Assembly (NCBI RefSeq): GCF_041248615.1
Contig: NZ_CP158426.1
From: Escherichia coli
GTDB taxonomy: Bacteria > Pseudomonadota > Gammaproteobacteria > Enterobacterales > Enterobacteriaceae
Strand: one strand, 5' to 3'
Length of the DNA stretch: 64,000 nt
A program made the position numbers and the translations under genes. Below the pieces are notes generated by a model. It searched no databases, was not told where the DNA came from, and saw only the letters and a list, made by a program, of their open reading frames with translations. Shown in pieces: positions 1 through 17,257 of the stretch; within the stretch, counting starts at the first letter, position 1; every line of letters begins with the position of its first letter.

Positions 1-1117
1 TCGCCGCGAAACACTGGTAATCGGGCAGTATGGGCGTGACGGTATCAGCCTGGCAGAAGCGCGAGAAGAACTGATTGCTGCAAAGAAGCTGCTTAAAGCA
101 GGCCAGTCGCCGGCCGCGGCTAAACGTGACGGTATCAAAAAGATTCGTGGTGCCGAGACGTTTGCGGTACATACCGACAGTTATATGAAACACGTCATCC
201 TGGCTGAAAGTACCCGCGCAATGAAGCAGGCAGTGATCGACCGTGACATACTTCCGGTTCTTGGCAACAAAATGATGGCTGAAATTACCACATCGATGGT
301 TCGTGATTTGTGTGACCGGATTGTCGAACGCGGTGGTCGGGCAACAGCAGTACAGGCCAGGGAGATCATCAGCAGCGTATACCGTCACGCCAATGACCGT
401 GGTCATGGTTTGTTTAATCCTGCGGCTGACATTAAACCTTCGTCTATCGCCATATTTAAACCACGAGAGCGAACACTGACACCAGAAGAAATTGGTCTGT
501 TCTTCCGCACGCTGGATGCCATTGGTGCTATGGGCACTATGAAAATGGCTTTAAAGCTGGTGCTTATCACTATGGTCCGTAAAGGCGAATTCACCAATGC
601 AACGTGGGATGAAATAGATTTTAAAAAATGGACATGGACAATTCCTTCAGACCGCATGAAGGGAAGTCGGGCGCACGTTATTTACCTGCCTAAACAGGCA
701 CAGGATATATTAGTCGGGTTGCAGATGTGCGCTGGTGGAAGTGAATATCTGGTTCCTGGTCGTTACAATTTCCGGAAGCCATTATCTAATGCCGCGCTGA
801 ACTCTCTGATCGACAGAACGGTGAAAATAATAAATGAAGATGGTGAGCATATTCAGGACTTCACCGTACACGATATGCGCCGTACAGCCAGTACGTTGTT
901 GCATGAGGCTGGTTATCCTTCAGACTGGATTGAAAAGGCTCTGGCACATGAGCAGAAAGGTGTGCGCGCCGTATATAACAAAGCGGAATACGCCAGACAG
1001 CGCGCCTACATGTTGCAGCAGTGGGCCGATATGATTGATTCCTGGATTAACGGGGAGCATACGGATCTGATTCCGTTCTCCCCGTCGAAGTTTGAGAGGT
1101 GGATGGCGGGGGAATAA
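1..1117 (+). CDS. int: Tyrosine integrase (P4-like), 5'-partial
   Basis: Reading frame is open from window position 2 and continuous with ORF 185..1117; C-terminal catalytic region HDMRRT...VRAVYNKAEY...WAD typical of tyrosine recombinases. Confidence 0.88.
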   Translation, partial: RRETLVIGQYGRDGISLAEAREELIAAKKLLKAGQSPAAAKRDGIKKIRGAETFAVHTDSYMKHVILAESTRAMKQAVIDRDILPVLGNKMMAEITTSMVRDLCDRIVERGGRATAVQAREIISSVYRHANDRGHGLFNPAADIKPSSIAIFKPRERTLTPEEIGLFFRTLDAIGAMGTMKMALKLVLITMVRKGEFTNATWDEIDFKKWTWTIPSDRMKGSRAHVIYLPKQAQDILVGLQMCAGGSEYLVPGRYNFRKPLSNAALNSLIDRTVKIINEDGEHIQDFTVHDMRRTASTLLHEAGYPSDWIEKALAHEQKGVRAVYNKAEYARQRAYMLQQWADMIDSWINGEHTDLIPFSPSKFERWMAGE

Positions 1118-12137: not shown

Positions 12138-12734
12138 ATGATGCCTGCTGAACCTAAAACCTATAAACGCAAATCAACGCAATTTAAGCCACTAACAGCA
12201 ATGCAGGAGGCTTATTGCCAGTCATACATCAAAACGCCTGAAAACCAGACTCAGGCAGCGATTAACGCAGGATTCTCCCCAAATACAGCGGCAGTTAAAG
12301 CCAGTGTCATGATGCGCGATGAACGCATTCAAAAACGGATTGCCGAGTTGATGGAGGAGCGCAACAAACGAATGCGCGTCAGTGCTGATTACGTTCTCAT
12401 GCGCCTGGTGGAGATCGACCAGATGGACGTGATCGATATCCTCAACGACGATGGGAGCCTTAAACCAATCCGTGAGTGGCCGAAAATCTGGCGCACTACG
12501 CTTAGTGGCTTTGATCTGTCATCGACCATCATGAACATGAACGAGGATTCGATAGAGACAATCCTCAAAAAAATTAAATGGCCTGACAAGGTGAAGAACC
12601 TCGAACTGATTGGTAAGCACGTCGACGTCAACGCATTCAAAGAACGCCTGGATGTTAATGTGAATGTGACAATTGCTGATCGCATAGCGGCAGCCAGGAA
12701 GAGACTGAAAGAACGTCAGGATGGCAATCAGTGA
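12138..12734 (+). CDS. Terminase small subunit
   Basis: LTAMQEAYCQSY...QTQAAINAGFSPNTAAVKAS...RIQKRIAEL resembles small-terminase family signature; track start 12060 lies inside terminator hairpin and is rejected. Confidence 0.75.
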   Translation: MMPAEPKTYKRKSTQFKPLTAMQEAYCQSYIKTPENQTQAAINAGFSPNTAAVKASVMMRDERIQKRIAELMEERNKRMRVSADYVLMRLVEIDQMDVIDILNDDGSLKPIREWPKIWRTTLSGFDLSSTIMNMNEDSIETILKKIKWPDKVKNLELIGKHVDVNAFKERLDVNVNVTIADRIAAARKRLKERQDGNQ

Positions 12735-14206
12735 CAGATACAGCGTTATCTCCTGAAGAGCAGTTAATCGAGGATATTGCAGGGTTCACTCACGATCCGC
12801 TTGGCTATGCCCTCTATGCGTTCCCGTGGGGGGAAGAGGGTACTGAACTGGCACATGCCACCGGTCCACGTCAGTGGCAGGCCGATGCGTTCCGAGAGAT
12901 ACGTGATCACCTGCAGAATCCAGAGACGCGATATCAGCCGCTTATGCTGGCACGTGCTTCTGGTCACGGTATTGGTAAATCCGCATTCATCTCAATGCTG
13001 ATCAACTGGGGCATGTCCACTTGCGAGGATTGTAAGGTCGTGGTGACCGCCAACACCGACAACCAGCTACGAACGAAGACCTGGCCGGAAATTATCAAGT
13101 GGTCGAACCTTGCTATCACGAAAGACTGGTTTACCTGTACCGCTACCGCGATGTACAGCAATGACCCTGGGCACGACAAGCGGTGGCGAGCTGACGCAAT
13201 CCCCTGGTCTGAGCACAACACTGAGGCATTCGCCGGACTACACAACGAGCGCAAACGCATCATCGTGGTATTCGACGAAGCATCCAACATTGCCGATCTG
13301 GTGTGGGAGGTAGCAGAGGGTGCGCTGACGGACGAAGACACTGAGATTATCTGGGTGGCATTCGGAAACCCTACACGTAACACCGGGCGTTTCCGCGAAT
13401 GTTTCCGCAAATATAAACACCGCTGGAAAACTGCGCAGATTGACAGCCGGACGGTGGAAGGCACTAACAAACAGCAGTTGCAGAAATGGGTTGATGACTA
13501 CGGGGAAGACAGCGACTTCGTTAAAATCCGTGTGCGCGGCATATTCCCGGATGCATCTGAATTGCAGTTTATCCCTACCGGCCTTACTGACGAGGCAATG
13601 AAACGGGTGGTAACCGCTGCGCAGGTTGCACATGCTCCGGTGATAATCGGCGTTGACCCGGCATACTCCGGCGTTGATGACGCTGTGATATACCTGCGGC
13701 AGGGGCTGCACAGTAAGGTGCTATGGACTGGTAACAAGACCACCGACGATCTGATTATGGCGAAGCGTATCGCTGACTTTGAAGACCAGTACCAGGCTGA
13801 CGCAGTGTTCATCGACTTCGGTTACGGAACTGGTCTGAAGTCAATCGGTGATGGCTGGGGACGTACATGGCAACTTGTTCCGTTCAGCGGTGCGTCCACT
13901 GACCCGCAGATGCTTAACAAGCGTGGGGAGATGTTCAACTCATGCAAGACATGGCTGAGGCTGGGCGGCATGCTGGATGACCAGGAAACAGCAGACGACC
14001 TGTCGGCGGCAGAGTACAAAGTTCGAGTGGACGGTAAAATCGTTATCGAACCGAAGGAAGATATCAAGGAGCGGCTTGGGCGTTCTCCTGGTAAAGGCGA
14101 TGCGCTACTGCTGACGTTTGCGTTCCCTGTGTCGAAGCGTCTGCGAATTCCCGGGCAGCAGAACCAGCAAGGCAAGGCCATCACAGATTACGATCCATAT
14201 GCTTAA
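12731..14206 (+). CDS. Terminase large subunit
   Basis: 491 aa; Walker A-like ARASGHGIGKS; ATPase and nuclease-type layout; overlaps terS stop. Confidence 0.85.
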   Translation: MTDTALSPEEQLIEDIAGFTHDPLGYALYAFPWGEEGTELAHATGPRQWQADAFREIRDHLQNPETRYQPLMLARASGHGIGKSAFISMLINWGMSTCEDCKVVVTANTDNQLRTKTWPEIIKWSNLAITKDWFTCTATAMYSNDPGHDKRWRADAIPWSEHNTEAFAGLHNERKRIIVVFDEASNIADLVWEVAEGALTDEDTEIIWVAFGNPTRNTGRFRECFRKYKHRWKTAQIDSRTVEGTNKQQLQKWVDDYGEDSDFVKIRVRGIFPDASELQFIPTGLTDEAMKRVVTAAQVAHAPVIIGVDPAYSGVDDAVIYLRQGLHSKVLWTGNKTTDDLIMAKRIADFEDQYQADAVFIDFGYGTGLKSIGDGWGRTWQLVPFSGASTDPQMLNKRGEMFNSCKTWLRLGGMLDDQETADDLSAAEYKVRVDGKIVIEPKEDIKERLGRSPGKGDALLLTFAFPVSKRLRIPGQQNQQGKAITDYDPYA

Positions 14207-14280
14207 TCCGCTGGTGGGGATAATACTGCTGATATCCTCTGGTGAGGATAAAACAAAGCCAGCTCATCGGCTGGCTGTTT

Positions 14281-14292
14281 GTGACATGTCAC
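14281..14292. repeat. 12-bp palindrome GTGACATGTCAC (copy 2 of 3)
   Basis: Exact; 4 bp past stop of minus-strand gene 14297..14653 and directly followed (minus orientation) by hairpin AGCCAGC/GCTGGCT plus T-run. Confidence 0.9.
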
Positions 14293-14296
14293 GGTG

Positions 14297-14653
14297 TTAT
14301 TGCTCGCTTAACTTCTGCTTCAGCAAGTAACCTTCGAGCATCCAGATTTTGTTTACAGCATTCTGCCGGGCAATCTTCCGACCAATTTCTGCATCAAAAT
14401 TTTCCGGACTTGCACAGGCACTCTCTCCGGTGACGGTGAAGCCATTCTTCAGTACCAATACGCAGAAAGTCAGGAGGTCTGTAGATTTATGCGCTGTCCA
14501 TGAATCGCCAACACCCATATTGGCAGCACGAATGCCGTCATAAGCAGTAAAGAAATGCTCTTCAAGAATGATGCTTTCGATATATTGAGGCGTAACGCGC
14601 GGTGCCGTTTTGCCTTTCTCAACGATTTCTTTTTCGATTTGCTGGTCGTTCAT
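14297..14653 (-). CDS. Hypothetical moron protein, antisense to virion genes
   Basis: 118 aa ORF with SD AAGGTGAG upstream of ATG; lies between terL and portal on opposite strand with own terminator; family unknown. Confidence 0.5.
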   Translation of the reverse strand: MNDQQIEKEIVEKGKTAPRVTPQYIESIILEEHFFTAYDGIRAANMGVGDSWTAHKSTDLLTFCVLVLKNGFTVTGESACASPENFDAEIGRKIARQNAVNKIWMLEGYLLKQKLSEQ

Positions 14654-14766
14654 AATCTCACCTTAAAAAAATGCCCGGCGAACCTGGCGAACTGGAAGCA
14701 ATGAGTTATGCCTTCCGTGGCTGTACGGGTTTACAGCATGAAGTCATCGCAATGGCGTCCTGCTGT

Positions 14767-14809
14767 AAAAAAGGGCGGTGATAGTCCTTCAAGGGAAACT
14801 ATCACCGCC
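14767..14809 (-). terminator. Rho-independent terminator downstream of tRNA-Arg
   Basis: 12-bp perfect stem GGCGGTGATAGT/ACTATCACCGCC with A-run on plus strand (T-run on minus). Confidence 0.7.
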
Positions 14810-14852
14810 AAGCCCCTGGAACTTCTGGCATCACGGTCCTTAGGCGTGATTC

Positions 14853-14929
14853 TGGCGTGGCATGCAGGATTCGAACCTGCGACCAACCGCTTAGAAGGCG
14901 GTTGCTCTGTCCGACTGAGCTAATGCCAC
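14853..14929 (-). tRNA. tRNA-Arg (anticodon UCU), phage-encoded
   Basis: 77 nt; reverse complement GTGGCATTAGCTCAGTCGGACAGAGCAACCGCCTTCTAAGCGGTTGGTCGCAGGTTCGAATCCTGCATGCCACGCCA; 7-bp acceptor stem, T-loop GGTTCGAATCC, anticodon loop CTTCTAA, encoded CCA; close to E. coli argU in layout. Confidence 0.85.
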
Positions 14930-15251
14930 AACGCTGAGAGCACTTAGCCTGTTAAGGCGCCACACTTTGTCGCGGCTCCATAAATGCTCTCATCGTTGTA
15001 CCCTCGTCTCTTCCGAGGCGTCACACCGAATCGCCGGGATGGTGAATCCCCGTGCGCGGAATAAAACCGCTCGACTTGCACATTCCGGCTACCTGGTTCG
15101 TTTGCCCGAGCAAGGGAGGGTGCCCCTTAAACGTATCCAGACCGCTATCGGCGCATGTGCCATACACCGTACTGCTCAAAATAAAATCTCACTCCACCTG
15201 TTCAATTTAACGACAGGCCAGTCAGGTTAGTAACCGGAATGAACTCTTTGG

Positions 15252-15266
15252 TTACCTGAAAGGTAA
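15252..15266. promoter_or_regulatory. Operator-like palindrome TTACCTGAAAGGTAA upstream of head gene cluster, followed by ATATGTGGTT-N5-GGTAAT (15309-15329)
   Basis: Perfect TTACC-N5-GGTAA; downstream motif shared with tailspike upstream region. Confidence 0.5.
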
Positions 15267-15356
15267 TAATTTGTGCGTTAAATGTCAACTGTCTACGATA
15301 AATAAATCATATGTGGTTAAATTGGTAATAATTTAATTGCGTACGGAGTCATTGAT

Positions 15357-15563
15357 ATGTGCATGGGTAGCTCACCATCAGTGCCTGCAACACCAGAAGT
15401 TCAGGCAGCACCACAGGAGCAGGATGCCGCCGTTGTTGATGCCCGCGACGAAGAAACTCGTCGCCGTCGCGCTGCTGCTGGTCGTAGTTCTACGCTGCTT
15501 ACCGGTTCTCAGGGCGACACATCAACCGCTAATACCAGCGGTAAAACGCTGCTTGGTCAGTAA
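15357..15563 (+). CDS. Small Ala/Arg-rich head-module protein
   Basis: 68 aa; shares translation initiation context CGGAGTCATTGA(T/A)ATG with portal gene. Confidence 0.4.
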   Translation: MCMGSSPSVPATPEVQAAPQEQDAAVVDARDEETRRRRAAAGRSSTLLTGSQGDTSTANTSGKTLLGQ

Positions 15564-15577
15564 CCGGAGTCATTGAA

Positions 15578-17257
15578 ATGGCGGAAACAACTAAAGAGCG
15601 ATTGAACAAACAGTTCGCACAACTTGAAAGCGAGCGTCAGTCGTTCGAGCCGCACTGGCGCGAGTTGAGTGATTACATCAACCCACGTGGTTCCCGCTTT
15701 CTGACTTCTGAGGTCAACCGTAACGATCGACGCAATACACGCATTATTGATTCGACCGGGACTATGGCGGCGCGCACTCTCGCCAGCGGCATGATGTCAG
15801 GCATCACAAGCCCCGCGCGTCCGTGGTTTCGCCTGGCTACGCCAGATCCTGAAATGATGGATTATGGCCCTGTTAAGTTGTGGCTTGAGGCAGTTCAGAA
15901 CCGCATGAACGATATGTTCAATAAGTCGAATCTCTACCAGTCTCTTCCGCAGTTATACGGAAGCCTCGGCACATACAGCACTGGTGCAATGGCAGTGCTG
16001 GAGGATGACGAGGACATCATTCGCACAATGCCATTCCCGATAGGCAGTTACTACCTGGCTAACTCACCTCGTGGCAGTGTTGACACCTGTTTTCGCAAGT
16101 TCTCTATGACTGTTCGTCAGCTTGTTCAGGAGTTCGGGCTAAATAACGTCAGCGAATCCGTAAAAAGCATGTGGGAAAGCGGCACCTACGAGAAGTGGAT
16201 CGAAGTGATGCATTCGGTTTACCCGAACATTGACCGCGATACATCGAAGCTGGATAGCAAGAACAAGCCATTCAAATCGGTTTATTACGAGGTTGGTGGA
16301 GATAACGACAAGTTGTTGCGTGAGTCCGGATTCGATGAGTTTCCAATTATGGCTCCGCGCTGGGAAGTTAACGGCGAAGATGTTTATGGATCATCATGCC
16401 CGGGTATGCTGGCGCTTGGACCTGTTAAGGCATTGCAGCTTCTCCAGAAGCGCAAGTCGCAGTTGATTGATAAAGCCACCAATCCGCCGATGGTTGCTCC
16501 GACTTCCCTCAAGAATCAGCGCGCCTCCCTTCTTCCTGGCGACATCACGTATATCGATCAGATTACTGGTCAGGATGGCTTCAGGCCTGCTTATCTGGTT
16601 AACCCCAGTACAGCAGATTTGGTGGCAGACATTCAGGACACTCGTCAAATCATTAACAGCGCCTACTTTGTCGATCTGTTCATGATGTTGCAGAACATCA
16701 ATACCCGCTCGATGCCTGTTGAAGCGGTGATCGAAATGAAAGAAGAAAAACTTCTGATGTTGGGGCCGGTTCTGGAGCGTCTGAACGACGAATGTCTTAA
16801 TCCTCTCATTGACCGCGCTTTCTCGATGATGGTGCGCAAAAACATGCTGCCGCCACCGCCTGACGCGATGGAAGGCATGCCCCTGAAGGTCGAATACATT
16901 TCCGTCATGGCTCAGGCGCAGAAGTCTATCGGCCTGTCCAGTCTGGCGTCCACGGTTAACTTCATTGGTCAACTTGCGCAAGCGAAACCAGAAGCTCTCG
17001 ACAAACTCAACGTTGATCAGGCGATCGATGCATTCGCTGATATGTCCGGAGTGTCTCCAACCGTCATTGTTCCGCAGGAACAGGTTGAGCAGGCTCGCCA
17101 GCAACGGGCACAGCAACAACAGCAGCAACAAATGATGGCGATGGGGATGGCGGCGGCACAGGGGGCCAAGACGCTAAGCGAAGCTAAAACTTCGGATCCG
17201 AGTGTGTTGTCAGCTATGGCGAATGCAGTTAGTGGTCAGGGTGGGCAATCACAATGA
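15578..17257 (+). CDS. Portal (head-to-tail connector) protein, podovirus type
   Basis: 559 aa, position after terL, C-terminal Q-rich tail; resembles T7 gp8-type connector by recollection. Confidence 0.75.
   Translation: MAETTKERLNKQFAQLESERQSFEPHWRELSDYINPRGSRFLTSEVNRNDRRNTRIIDSTGTMAARTLASGMMSGITSPARPWFRLATPDPEMMDYGPVKLWLEAVQNRMNDMFNKSNLYQSLPQLYGSLGTYSTGAMAVLEDDEDIIRTMPFPIGSYYLANSPRGSVDTCFRKFSMTVRQLVQEFGLNNVSESVKSMWESGTYEKWIEVMHSVYPNIDRDTSKLDSKNKPFKSVYYEVGGDNDKLLRESGFDEFPIMAPRWEVNGEDVYGSSCPGMLALGPVKALQLLQKRKSQLIDKATNPPMVAPTSLKNQRASLLPGDITYIDQITGQDGFRPAYLVNPSTADLVADIQDTRQIINSAYFVDLFMMLQNINTRSMPVEAVIEMKEEKLLMLGPVLERLNDECLNPLIDRAFSMMVRKNMLPPPPDAMEGMPLKVEYISVMAQAQKSIGLSSLASTVNFIGQLAQAKPEALDKLNVDQAIDAFADMSGVSPTVIVPQEQVEQARQQRAQQQQQQQMMAMGMAAAQGAKTLSEAKTSDPSVLSAMANAVSGQGGQSQ

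Follow-up and report, generated by a model that had tools for sequence, protein, structure and literature searches.

A covariation-supported structured RNA family in Escherichia coli prophages and its possible role as a put-like antiterminator

What is encoded in the roughly 320 bp that separate a tRNA gene from an operator-like repeat in a prophage of Escherichia coli? The interval, positions 14930-15251 of the 64,000-nucleotide stretch of contig NZ_CP158426.1 analysed here (the window), had been described in a first-pass annotation, made from the sequence alone, as a GC-rich region with several short hairpins and no credible open reading frame (ORF), which might hold the promoter and leader of the tRNA or a small RNA. 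According to BLAST against phage records, the window contains a phiV10/epsilon15-like (Uetakevirus) prophage. Comparison with relatives shows that the minus strand of 14930-15251 encodes the body of a conserved structured RNA gene. This element represents an unannotated, covariation-supported structured-RNA family that is absent from Rfam; the first-pass annotation missed that the family is widespread and occurs also without any tRNA.

Structure of the conserved RNA

The composition of the region differs from that of its surroundings, with a GC content of 0.555-0.565 over 14800-15199 compared to 0.385-0.46 over 15100-15399 and about 0.46-0.48 over 14200-14799; the enrichment noticed earlier is thus real, though moderate. 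Folded on its own, the minus strand reaches a minimum free energy of -122 kcal/mol (z = -3.29), a stability attained by none of 100 shuffled sequences, and the plus strand gives a weaker signal (z = -2.62). This single-sequence evidence is weak beside the comparative evidence from relatives. We aligned 27 diverse cores and tested a hand-built model of 31 proposed pairs on the alignment, with column shuffling (500 shuffles) and a displacement of the 3' partner by 1-3 columns as controls. Standard pairs occur in 96.0% of the cells compared to 87.6% after shuffling, a value of 96.0% being reached in 0 of 500 shuffles, and pairing falls to 28-45% of the cells once the 3' partner is slid. Double-sided changes are found at 13 of the 31 pairs, for example A-U/G-C in H1 (16:11) and C-G/U-A in P2 (18:9); three covarying pairs lie in P4a and five in P5. 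The model comprises the following features.

14995-15176, minus strand: conserved RNA core (5' domain), 182 nucleotides (nt), delimited by covariance model R1
15169-15149, minus strand: hairpin H1, from the comparative model, with three covarying pairs
15160-15155 with 15083-15078, minus strand: pseudoknot PK1, H1 loop GCACAU with AUGUGC, from complementarity (6 bp, perfect)
15146-15088, minus strand: helix P2, apical part variable, from the comparative model
15093-15075, minus strand: near-invariant stretch GGUAGCCGGAAUGUGCAAG, from the alignment
15074-15052, minus strand: P3, variable
15051-15020, minus strand: hairpin P4a with pseudoknot PK2, CACC (15044-15041) pairing with GGUG (15027-15024)
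15018-15002, minus strand: hairpin P5 with the conserved loop GAAGAGA

Read from the opposite strand, the conserved G-U pairs at alignment columns 10/26 and 36/92 would turn into A-C, which identifies the minus strand of the window as the RNA strand. About 60 nucleotides are invariant, including long unpaired stretches in the junctions. Two pseudoknots in which a loop pairs with downstream sequence, PK1 and PK2, are likely in the core. For PK2, a compensatory change from C-G to A-U is present in two sequences, and one relative, locus L098, carries GGUC/GACC. RNAalifold, which cannot represent pseudoknots, proposes a nested alternative in which GCACAU and AUGUGC form an ordinary long-range helix at the cost of H1; since H1 contains three covarying pairs, we prefer H1 together with PK1.

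The covariance model R1, built from the core, detects the window copy at 15176-14995 with 153.7 bits (E = 3.4e-50) as the sole match in 64 kb. Full-length relatives score 100-172 bits with one copy per locus, and the truncated copies of epsilon15 and L075 as well as the cut copy of L029 score 25-45 bits. Across the family the core measures 160-190 nt and the whole RNA about 250-330 nt. What the first pass took for several short hairpins is one long multi-domain RNA; likewise, the proposed small RNA was right in spirit and too modest, given a structured RNA of this length with, in the window, a 182-nt core and probably two pseudoknots.

Could the region instead encode a small protein, act as a site at the level of the DNA or represent a remnant in decay? 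Such a reading could appeal to the GenBank coding sequences (CDSs) mEp460_037, mEp390_036 and Tyrion gp54, which are drawn over the element, and to the 87-aa ORF on the plus strand of the window. This ORF, like those of 52 and 45 aa on the minus strand, is short, and the starts are mostly TTG or GTG. Moreover, each of 26 homologues differs from the window by 1-6 insertions or deletions whose length is not a multiple of three, all inside the conserved stretch, and in four of them neither strand carries an open frame; L064 and the P1 group are among those without one. With frame-shifting changes throughout and no conserved reading frame, we reject the protein-coding reading, in agreement with the earlier statement that no credible ORF exists. 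Compensatory changes and strand-specific G-U pairs likewise speak for an RNA, and any explanation other than an RNA appears scarcely credible. The CDSs annotated over the RNA differ in strand and frame between records and are probably spurious. All are labelled as hypothetical proteins and lie over or beside the RNA, namely at 2434-2802 in L002 (mEp460_037), 2842-3084 in L161 (mEp390_036), 2850-3011 in L130 (Tyrion gp54) and 2765-2959 in L128 (2H10 gp36).

Range and genomic settings

In BLAST searches, 14930-15170 is about 82% identical to a non-coding stretch of lambdoid phages, namely of cdtI, mEp460, 2H10 and Ayreon and of Stx2c, Stx2a and Stx2k phages, and 15008-15170 is about 80% identical to P1, P7, D6, SJ46 and RCS47. 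Matches over shorter pieces were obtained with SPN1S, with Tyrion, with Klebsiella phages and with two phages named for Stenotrophomonas. A pattern made from the most conserved part occurs in at least 120 IMG/VR contigs with 91 distinct cores. An independent 18-mer from another conserved block, run on a collection with one genome per species, matches 27 genome contigs, 24 of them with the full motif. Enterobacterales account for 22 of these 24 by name (Citrobacter, Kosakonia, Phytobacter, Klebsiella, Escherichia, Pseudescherichia, Pseudocitrobacter, Buttiauxella, Superficieibacter and Candidatus Erwinia dacicola); the other two contigs are short, binned with metagenome-assembled genomes (MAGs) of Bacillota or Lachnospiraceae, and look mis-binned. 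The 18-mer matches outside Enterobacterales in Azonexus, a Dysgonamonadaceae MAG and a Bacteroides MAG are without an R1 match and were discarded as chance. Within E. coli, blastn finds the element in 1839 of 5426 complete genomes, about a third, and plasmids carry 554 of the matching places, in keeping with P1-like phage-plasmids. None of the matches listed for these genomes has an annotated feature beneath it. The prophage CPS-53 of E. coli K-12 has yfdP-yfdR genes similar to early-left genes of cdtI and was searched for a remnant of the element; it is absent there, and R1 gives no match.

The Rfam covariance scan that had been suggested in the first pass returned no match over the element. 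With Rfam 15 and E values up to 10, only the tRNA is found in 14000-16000 of the window, and over 14930-15251 there are only chance matches of about 13 bits; at gathering thresholds, 17 diverse loci show nothing over the element. Far from the element, L064 carries an Rfam STnc100 small RNA adjoining a four-tRNA cluster (686-887 and 1218-1522, both on the minus strand), and L040 an int-alpA RNA (916-980, minus strand). Core sequences and a description of the family are absent from the literature searched, most papers in subscription journals being outside that search, and literature searches on put-like prophage RNAs, on the P1 trnI-ban interval and on tRNA-like prophage RNAs found no description.

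The RNA occurs in four settings, i.e. lambdoid phages, Uetakeviruses (epsilon15/phiV10-like podoviruses), P1-like phages and L098, and no protein gene is common to the four. The commonest context is lambdoid, with the order repressor gene, PL promoter, RNA, strong terminator and early-left genes, as seen in cdtI, mEp460, 2H10, Stx2a_1447, mEp390 and BUCT708 (more than 10 phage types overall) and also in L037, L052, L064, L066, L100, L108 and L121. The early-left genes behind the RNA resemble those of YfdP, YfdQ, YfdR or ParB, or else are xis and int. The distance from the end of the PL promoter to H1 is 49 nt in cdtI (TTGACA-16-CATAAT) and 26 nt in L100, whose PL is HK022-like. Non-coding PL leaders of more than 600 nt precede the first ORF in L052 and L108 (also in BUCT708, L162). 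In such long leaders, repeated boxB-like hairpins GnCCUGACCAGnC and P5-like repeats with loops GGAAAGACC occur 300-700 nt after the motif start.

In Uetakeviruses such as the one in the window, the order is operator/promoter, RNA, tRNA-Arg, two terminators and a gp49-family gene. In epsilon15 itself most of the RNA is lacking, since a single deletion of about 395 bp has taken away core, P6 (the closing helix described below), tRNA-Arg and terminator 1 (L005, NC_004775, 2380-2700 compared to L017). Two copies of CCTTGATGCT flank the deletion; the apical loop of P2 contains one of them and the loop of the terminator the other. An annotation reading 'RNaseIII mRNA processing' in the epsilon15 record covers the RNA remnant.

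P1-like phages show the order trnI, core only, small ORF and ban; the P1 copy is without P6, tRNA-like domain and terminator. At 2390-2500 of P1 (L004, NC_005856) a Shine-Dalgarno sequence comes right after the core, and with it an ORF of 14 codons; its stop codon and the start codon of ban overlap in UAAUG. Because these elements directly follow, the P1 core is the immediate 5' leader of a translationally coupled ban. In L098, finally, RNA and tRNA form a unit that has a promoter and a terminator to itself and is oriented antisense to the tail genes around it.

The transcription unit and its possible function

In the window, the core is embedded in a unit that reaches from a promoter to terminators on the minus strand.

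15288-15283 (-35) and 15265-15260 (-10), minus strand: promoter TTGACA-17-TACCTT, spacing conserved in relatives
15295-15290 and 15271-15266, minus strand: alternative overlapping promoter TAGACA-18-AATTAT, from a consensus scan
15252-15266, unstranded: inverted repeat TTACCTTTCAGGTAA, overlapping the -10 and the start site
15171-15251, minus strand: 5' leader, a decayed 'clamp' hairpin module, from comparison with Uetakeviruses
15217-15197, minus strand: leader hairpin CCUGUCGUUAAAUUGAACAGG
15195-15171, minus strand: remnant of the leader 3' strand, GGAGUGAGAUUUUAUUUUGAGCAGU
14928-14999, minus strand: closing helix P6, about 19 bp with one mismatch, from a duplex search (-26.9 kcal/mol)
14999-14981 with 14946-14928: P6 strands ACAACGAUGAGAGCAUUUA and UAAGUGCUCUCAGCGUUGU, with a two-hairpin insert at 14980-14947
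14853-14929, minus strand: tRNA-Arg, anticodon UCU (tct), by ARAGORN and the Rfam tRNA model (73.3 bits)
14830-14851, minus strand: conserved hairpin AAUCACGCCUAAGGACCGUGAU 3' of the tRNA, from comparison
14767-14809, minus strand: intrinsic terminator 1, 14-bp stem followed by UUUUUU (-23.1 kcal/mol)
14733-14766, minus strand: hairpin ACAGCA...UGCUGU directly 3' of terminator 1, where lambdoid relatives have a full clamp module
14665-14688, minus strand: second terminator-like hairpin with U-run (-14.3 kcal/mol), directly before the ribosome-binding site of the next gene
14297-14653, minus strand: Gp49/Sf6 gp66-family gene, 118 aa (Pfam PF13876, E = 1.7e-34)
14257-14276: third terminator-like hairpin, after the gp49-family gene and before the convergent terminase gene

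The neighbouring genes are on the plus strand.

12731-14206, plus strand: terminase large subunit gene
15357-15563, plus strand: ORF of 68 aa (MCMGSSPSVPATPEV...) with Cys at position 2-3 and no Pfam match
15578-17257, plus strand: portal gene

The 68-aa ORF is conserved ahead of the portal gene as gp3 of epsilon15-like phages and may encode a small lipoprotein.

Judged by the promoter position, transcription would start near 15253. A promoter TTGACA-17-TACCYT with the same spacing and a differing spacer sequence is found in the diverged Uetakeviruses L094, L117, L101, L007, L017 and L040, and it is better conserved than the alternative from the consensus scan. The inverted repeat TTACCTTTCAGGTAA is probably a repressor operator, and a related half-site motif, ATTATTACC, recurs upstream; at the equivalent place of the epsilon15 record, a repressor site and an IHF site are annotated. 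Since the promoter overlaps this operator-like repeat, and in view of the epsilon15 annotation, the RNA is probably repressed in the lysogen and made early after induction. The placement between tRNA and operator given in the first pass agrees with these coordinates (tRNA-Arg 14929-14853 on the minus strand, promoter and operator 15252-15295). The predicted promoter of the tRNA lies just outside or at the edge of 14930-15251.

Other Uetakeviruses have an intact clamp at the leader position, reading CACAACAUGAAAGCGCAC ... GUCGUUAAAUC hairpin ... GUGCGCUUCCAGGUGUG; in the window its 5' strand has lost complementarity to the 3' strand. The order of modules on the RNA strand is promoter, clamp (in most Uetakeviruses), core, P6, tRNA or tRNA-like domain, hairpin, terminator, clamp and ribosome-binding site. 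P6 runs into tRNA-Arg without a gap, its final two bases being tRNA nucleotides 1-2. Its pairing is kept by at least 10 different helix sequences in relatives, and 12 of 13 pairs predicted by RNAalifold show double-sided changes, with the caveat that the strands were chosen by an energy search. The hairpin AAUCACGCCUAAGGACCGUGAU follows the tRNA or tRNA-like domain in L017, L117, L007, L101 and L011, with variants in L025, L026 and L108. Nearly every member has terminator-like sites (hairpin and U-run) 300-700 nt after the motif start, the strongest with -19 to -23 kcal/mol, and the epsilon15 record has a terminator annotated at the place equivalent to 14665-14688.

P6-like hairpin modules recur before the core (L094, L117, L101, L007, L040; 15171-15251 in the window) and right after the terminator (L025, L037, L066, L100; 14733-14766 in the window), where they end at the next ribosome-binding site. 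They read CACAACnuGAAAGCGCAC, an insert (often the GUCGUUAAAUC hairpin) and then GUGCGCUUCCAGUUGUG, and each covaries on its own. These modules may be RNase III processing stems that separate the parts of the transcript.

Does the RNA serve the tRNA that it abuts? In a literal sense the 'tRNA leader' of the first-pass annotation holds, because the element shares the strand of the tRNA, follows a conserved promoter and precedes the tRNA, with its final helix reaching tRNA nucleotide 1. It is not specific to the tRNA, however: among 111 distinct contexts, 33 have a true tRNA that directly adjoins the RNA in the same orientation, and the remaining 78 are without a tRNA within 1.5 kb. A tRNA-Arg(UCU) lies 3' of the RNA in several subfamilies and a tRNA with a CAT anticodon in L098; trnI of P1-like phages lies 5' of it. 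In many other contexts, the tRNA position is taken by a tRNA-like domain with a 6-bp acceptor-like helix GUGGUG...CACCAC, a D-arm-like hairpin and, stacked directly on the 3' strand of the acceptor, a T-arm-like hairpin. Under a strict test, 51 of 130 regions have a closed domain of this kind, and neither ARAGORN nor the Rfam tRNA model calls the tRNA-like domains as tRNAs. Directly 3' of P6, the domain is present in L026, L007, L040, L101, L117, L121 and mEp460 (L002), reading GUGGUGAAUGCGCAGGCUGAUGCGC ... GCCGGAGAUCAGCACCGGCCACCACAAC with a variable middle; that of L026 has an anticodon-like 5-bp stem with the 7-nt loop CUUUUAA. RNase P cuts tRNA precursors at their 5' end, which would set the 3' end of an RNA upstream, and by analogy the tRNA-like domain would direct cleavage at its own 5' end and thereby create the 3' end of the upstream RNA.

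One possible explanation is that the RNA has no function of its own and acts as a leader or processing scaffold, aiding expression, folding, processing or protection of the downstream tRNA or mRNA; it might block Rho on the long untranslated transcript or offer an entry for RNase III or RNase P. The abutting tRNA-Arg in the window and the shared orientation wherever tRNAs occur would be in line with this, as would the P6-like clamp helices, which flank modules and terminators like the processing stems of rRNA operons or the RNase III sites of T7. The RNase III annotation of epsilon15 lies in the region too, though on the opposite strand and as a prediction only. Against it stand the 78 contexts without a tRNA and epsilon15, which does without the element. 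Furthermore, about 60 invariant nucleotides and two pseudoknot complementarities across lambdoid, P1-like and epsilon15-like phages are not expected of a spacer. We therefore regard a mere scaffold as improbable.

The reading that we favour, albeit tentatively and with less than even confidence, is that the RNA is a put-like processive antiterminator directed at the host RNA polymerase. The nascent folded core would bind the transcribing polymerase and bring about read-through of the strong downstream terminator or terminators. Genes behind the terminator would thus be expressed only from transcripts begun at the repressor-controlled early promoter, the gated gene being the gp49-family gene in the window and the whole early-left operon, including xis and int, in lambdoids. 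An RNase P cut at tRNA nucleotide 1 or at the tRNA-like domain would define the RNA's 3' end, and P6 could possibly be an RNase III site as well. Since no phage protein travels with the RNA, it would act through a conserved host component.

Several observations point in this direction. The cI protein of L100 is 56% identical to that of HK022, and the OL/PL region aligns nearly base for base with HK022 up to the -10, after which L100 has this RNA and HK022 has putL. No N gene is annotated or recognisable in the early-left operons behind the RNA, with none annotated in 2H10, Stx2a_1447, mEp460 and mEp390, and the first downstream proteins are without an N-like Pfam match, one belonging to no family and the others being DUF2303 and HD-domain proteins. 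In 11 of 11 loci examined, there is no promoter-like site between the terminator and the first downstream gene, and a promoter scan of the window likewise found none between the terminators and the gp49-family gene. Because no promoter intervenes, expression of the downstream genes, xis and int of L064 among them, needs read-through. Epsilon15 has moreover lost core, tRNA and terminator 1 in the same step, and the invariance of long unpaired stretches would suit a host partner. The put RNA needs host polymerase and no phage protein, and it remains active after being detached from the transcript (PMC9378689), and it has been suggested that N-less lambdoid phages may use put-like RNAs (PMC12315714). 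Taken together, the position in the put slot, the terminator without a downstream promoter, the requirement of put for nothing but host polymerase and the published suggestion favour a put-like mechanism.

The same place upstream of a terminator would also suit a riboswitch-like sensor, in which the core binds a metabolite, an ion or a host protein and sets terminator passage according to host state, so that early-left expression and excision are tuned to it. The many invariant unpaired junction nucleotides and the two pseudoknots are aptamer-like, and in some phages the terminator gates xis and int. Yet the terminator lies 200-500 nt downstream, beyond P6 and the tRNA or tRNA-like domain, no Rfam riboswitch matches, and no alternative pairing between core and terminator was found, the one shared loop sequence being confined to a single subgroup. 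We followed this sequence up as possible mimicry of the terminator loop by the P2 apical loop and rejected it, as the repeat of 10-13 nt occurs in one subgroup only; the longest common substring of the two loops averages 6.0 nt compared to 5.0 after shuffling and 5.3 across loci. A sensor seems even less probable than a scaffold.

The antitermination reading itself meets a number of objections. The functional assignment rests on position and analogy, and PK1, invariant across the aligned cores, draws its sole support from complementarity, with no covariation behind it. A search of the HK022 PL/PR region that tolerated up to 3 mismatches did not find the core motifs, R1 finds nothing in HK022 loci, and the sequences and fold of putL and putR are unrelated. 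R1 gives one match per locus and none after PR, in loci that span cro/cII and in the whole 2H10 genome. In L098 the unit is antisense to its neighbours, where there is nothing to antiterminate. The window has only one gene downstream, behind which a polymerase that stayed modified would enter the terminase gene in antisense direction. In P1, 2 kb separate the promoter from the core, which comes after trnI and immediately precedes ban, and a strong terminator is missing from its vicinity. Finally, the unit from core through P6, tRNA or tRNA-like domain and hairpin to terminator moves as one, a pattern closer to that of a self-contained RNA gene.

These objections lead to the explanation of a stand-alone early RNA acting in trans, in which RNase P, possibly together with RNase III in P6, frees a stable RNA of about 250 nt from a self-contained gene. 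With its ends protected by P6, such an RNA could bind or titrate a host polymerase, ribosome, RNase or defence nuclease; the terminator would merely end the gene, and the downstream genes would live on leak-through. The movement of the entire cassette, terminator included, between unrelated phages is consistent with this, as are the antisense unit of L098, the three terminators within 600 nt with only one small gene downstream in the window, and the same-strand abutting tRNA in 33 of 111 contexts. The tRNA-like domain is moreover what one would expect of an RNase P signal, and precedents exist in the stable RNAs C and D of T4 and in ROOL and GOLLD. What this explanation leaves unaccounted for is the constant place of the RNA after PL and ahead of the early-left operon, even one with xis and int, where a strong terminator follows and no promoter lies behind it; in addition, no candidate target was found, and the P1 copy lacks P6, tRNA-like domain and terminator. 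Compared to the put-like reading, a trans-acting RNA better explains the joint travel of the unit, L098, the single gene in the window, the one copy per phage and the lack of a put fold, and explains the arrangement of PL, terminator and xis-int worse. We consider it unlikely, though a serious contender.

Keeping to the put-like antiterminator as the preferred reading, its full extent would be a second, structurally unrelated class of RNA-only processive antiterminators, with a double-pseudoknot core and a tRNA or tRNA-like RNase P signal, that gates early-left transcription including xis and int in N-less lambdoids, P1-like phage-plasmids and epsilon15-like podoviruses across Enterobacterales and is present in about a third of complete E. 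coli genomes. In this broad form the proposal is somewhat more doubtful than the put-like role as such. If the RNA does control terminator passage after PL, it would be the missing early antitermination device of a large group of N-less lambdoids, with phages that convert for cdt, Stx2a and Stx2c among them. HK022 put would in that case cease to be a peculiarity of one family, and the RNA would be a second, larger one that reprograms E. coli RNA polymerase. If it is instead a stable trans-acting RNA, model systems such as P1 would contain an abundant, early-expressed and horizontally mobile phage RNA. In either case, a covariation-supported family found in 1839 of 5426 complete E. coli genomes has remained unannotated, with probably spurious CDSs drawn over it in several GenBank records, and merits addition to RNA family databases.

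Comparison with known systems

The closest functional parallel that we propose, HK022 put, shares with this RNA the place at the head of the early-left transcript just after PL in lambdoids without N, the lack of an apparent phage protein partner and the strong terminators that follow. The two differ in architecture, since put comprises about 70 nt and two stems, whereas the core described here has 160-190 nt, four helices, two probable pseudoknots and a long closing helix. They also differ in number, with two copies of put (putL and putR) compared to one per phage for this RNA, and in range, as the latter also occurs outside lambdoids and beside tRNAs; its antiterminator role is proposed from position.

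The slot in the PL leader is also the one that lambda nut occupies. A boxA-like sequence, GUGCUCUUU, is frequent as the 3' strand of P6, and a hairpin often follows. In contrast to nut, the boxA-like letters of this RNA are base-paired and not conserved, and there is no N gene. A boxA/nut reading of this strand was discarded, the letters covarying with their partner and L073 and L031 keeping the helix with other sequences.

Tandem arrangements of structured RNA and tRNA are familiar from the stable RNAs C and D in the T4 tRNA cluster and from ROOL and GOLLD, which lie beside phage tRNAs; the function of these RNAs is not known. Like them, the present RNA belongs to phages and prophages, is highly structured and non-coding, and often adjoins and is co-transcribed with tRNAs. 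Compared to ROOL and GOLLD (more than 500 nt), it is much smaller and has no Rfam match. It is distributed over Enterobacterales, and most commonly it is found as a promoter-proximal operon leader and not in a tRNA cluster.

A last comparison concerns the 3' end. P1 C4 and P4 CI are phage regulatory RNAs processed by RNase P, and the 3' end of MALAT1 is made by RNase P at the tRNA-like mascRNA element. The present RNA differs from C4 and CI in that there is no Rfam C4 match and no repeated complementary target sites were seen. As in these three cases, however, RNase P could set the end of the RNA at the tRNA or tRNA-like structure that directly follows on its 3' side, and like C4 and CI the RNA comes from temperate enterobacterial phages, P1 included.

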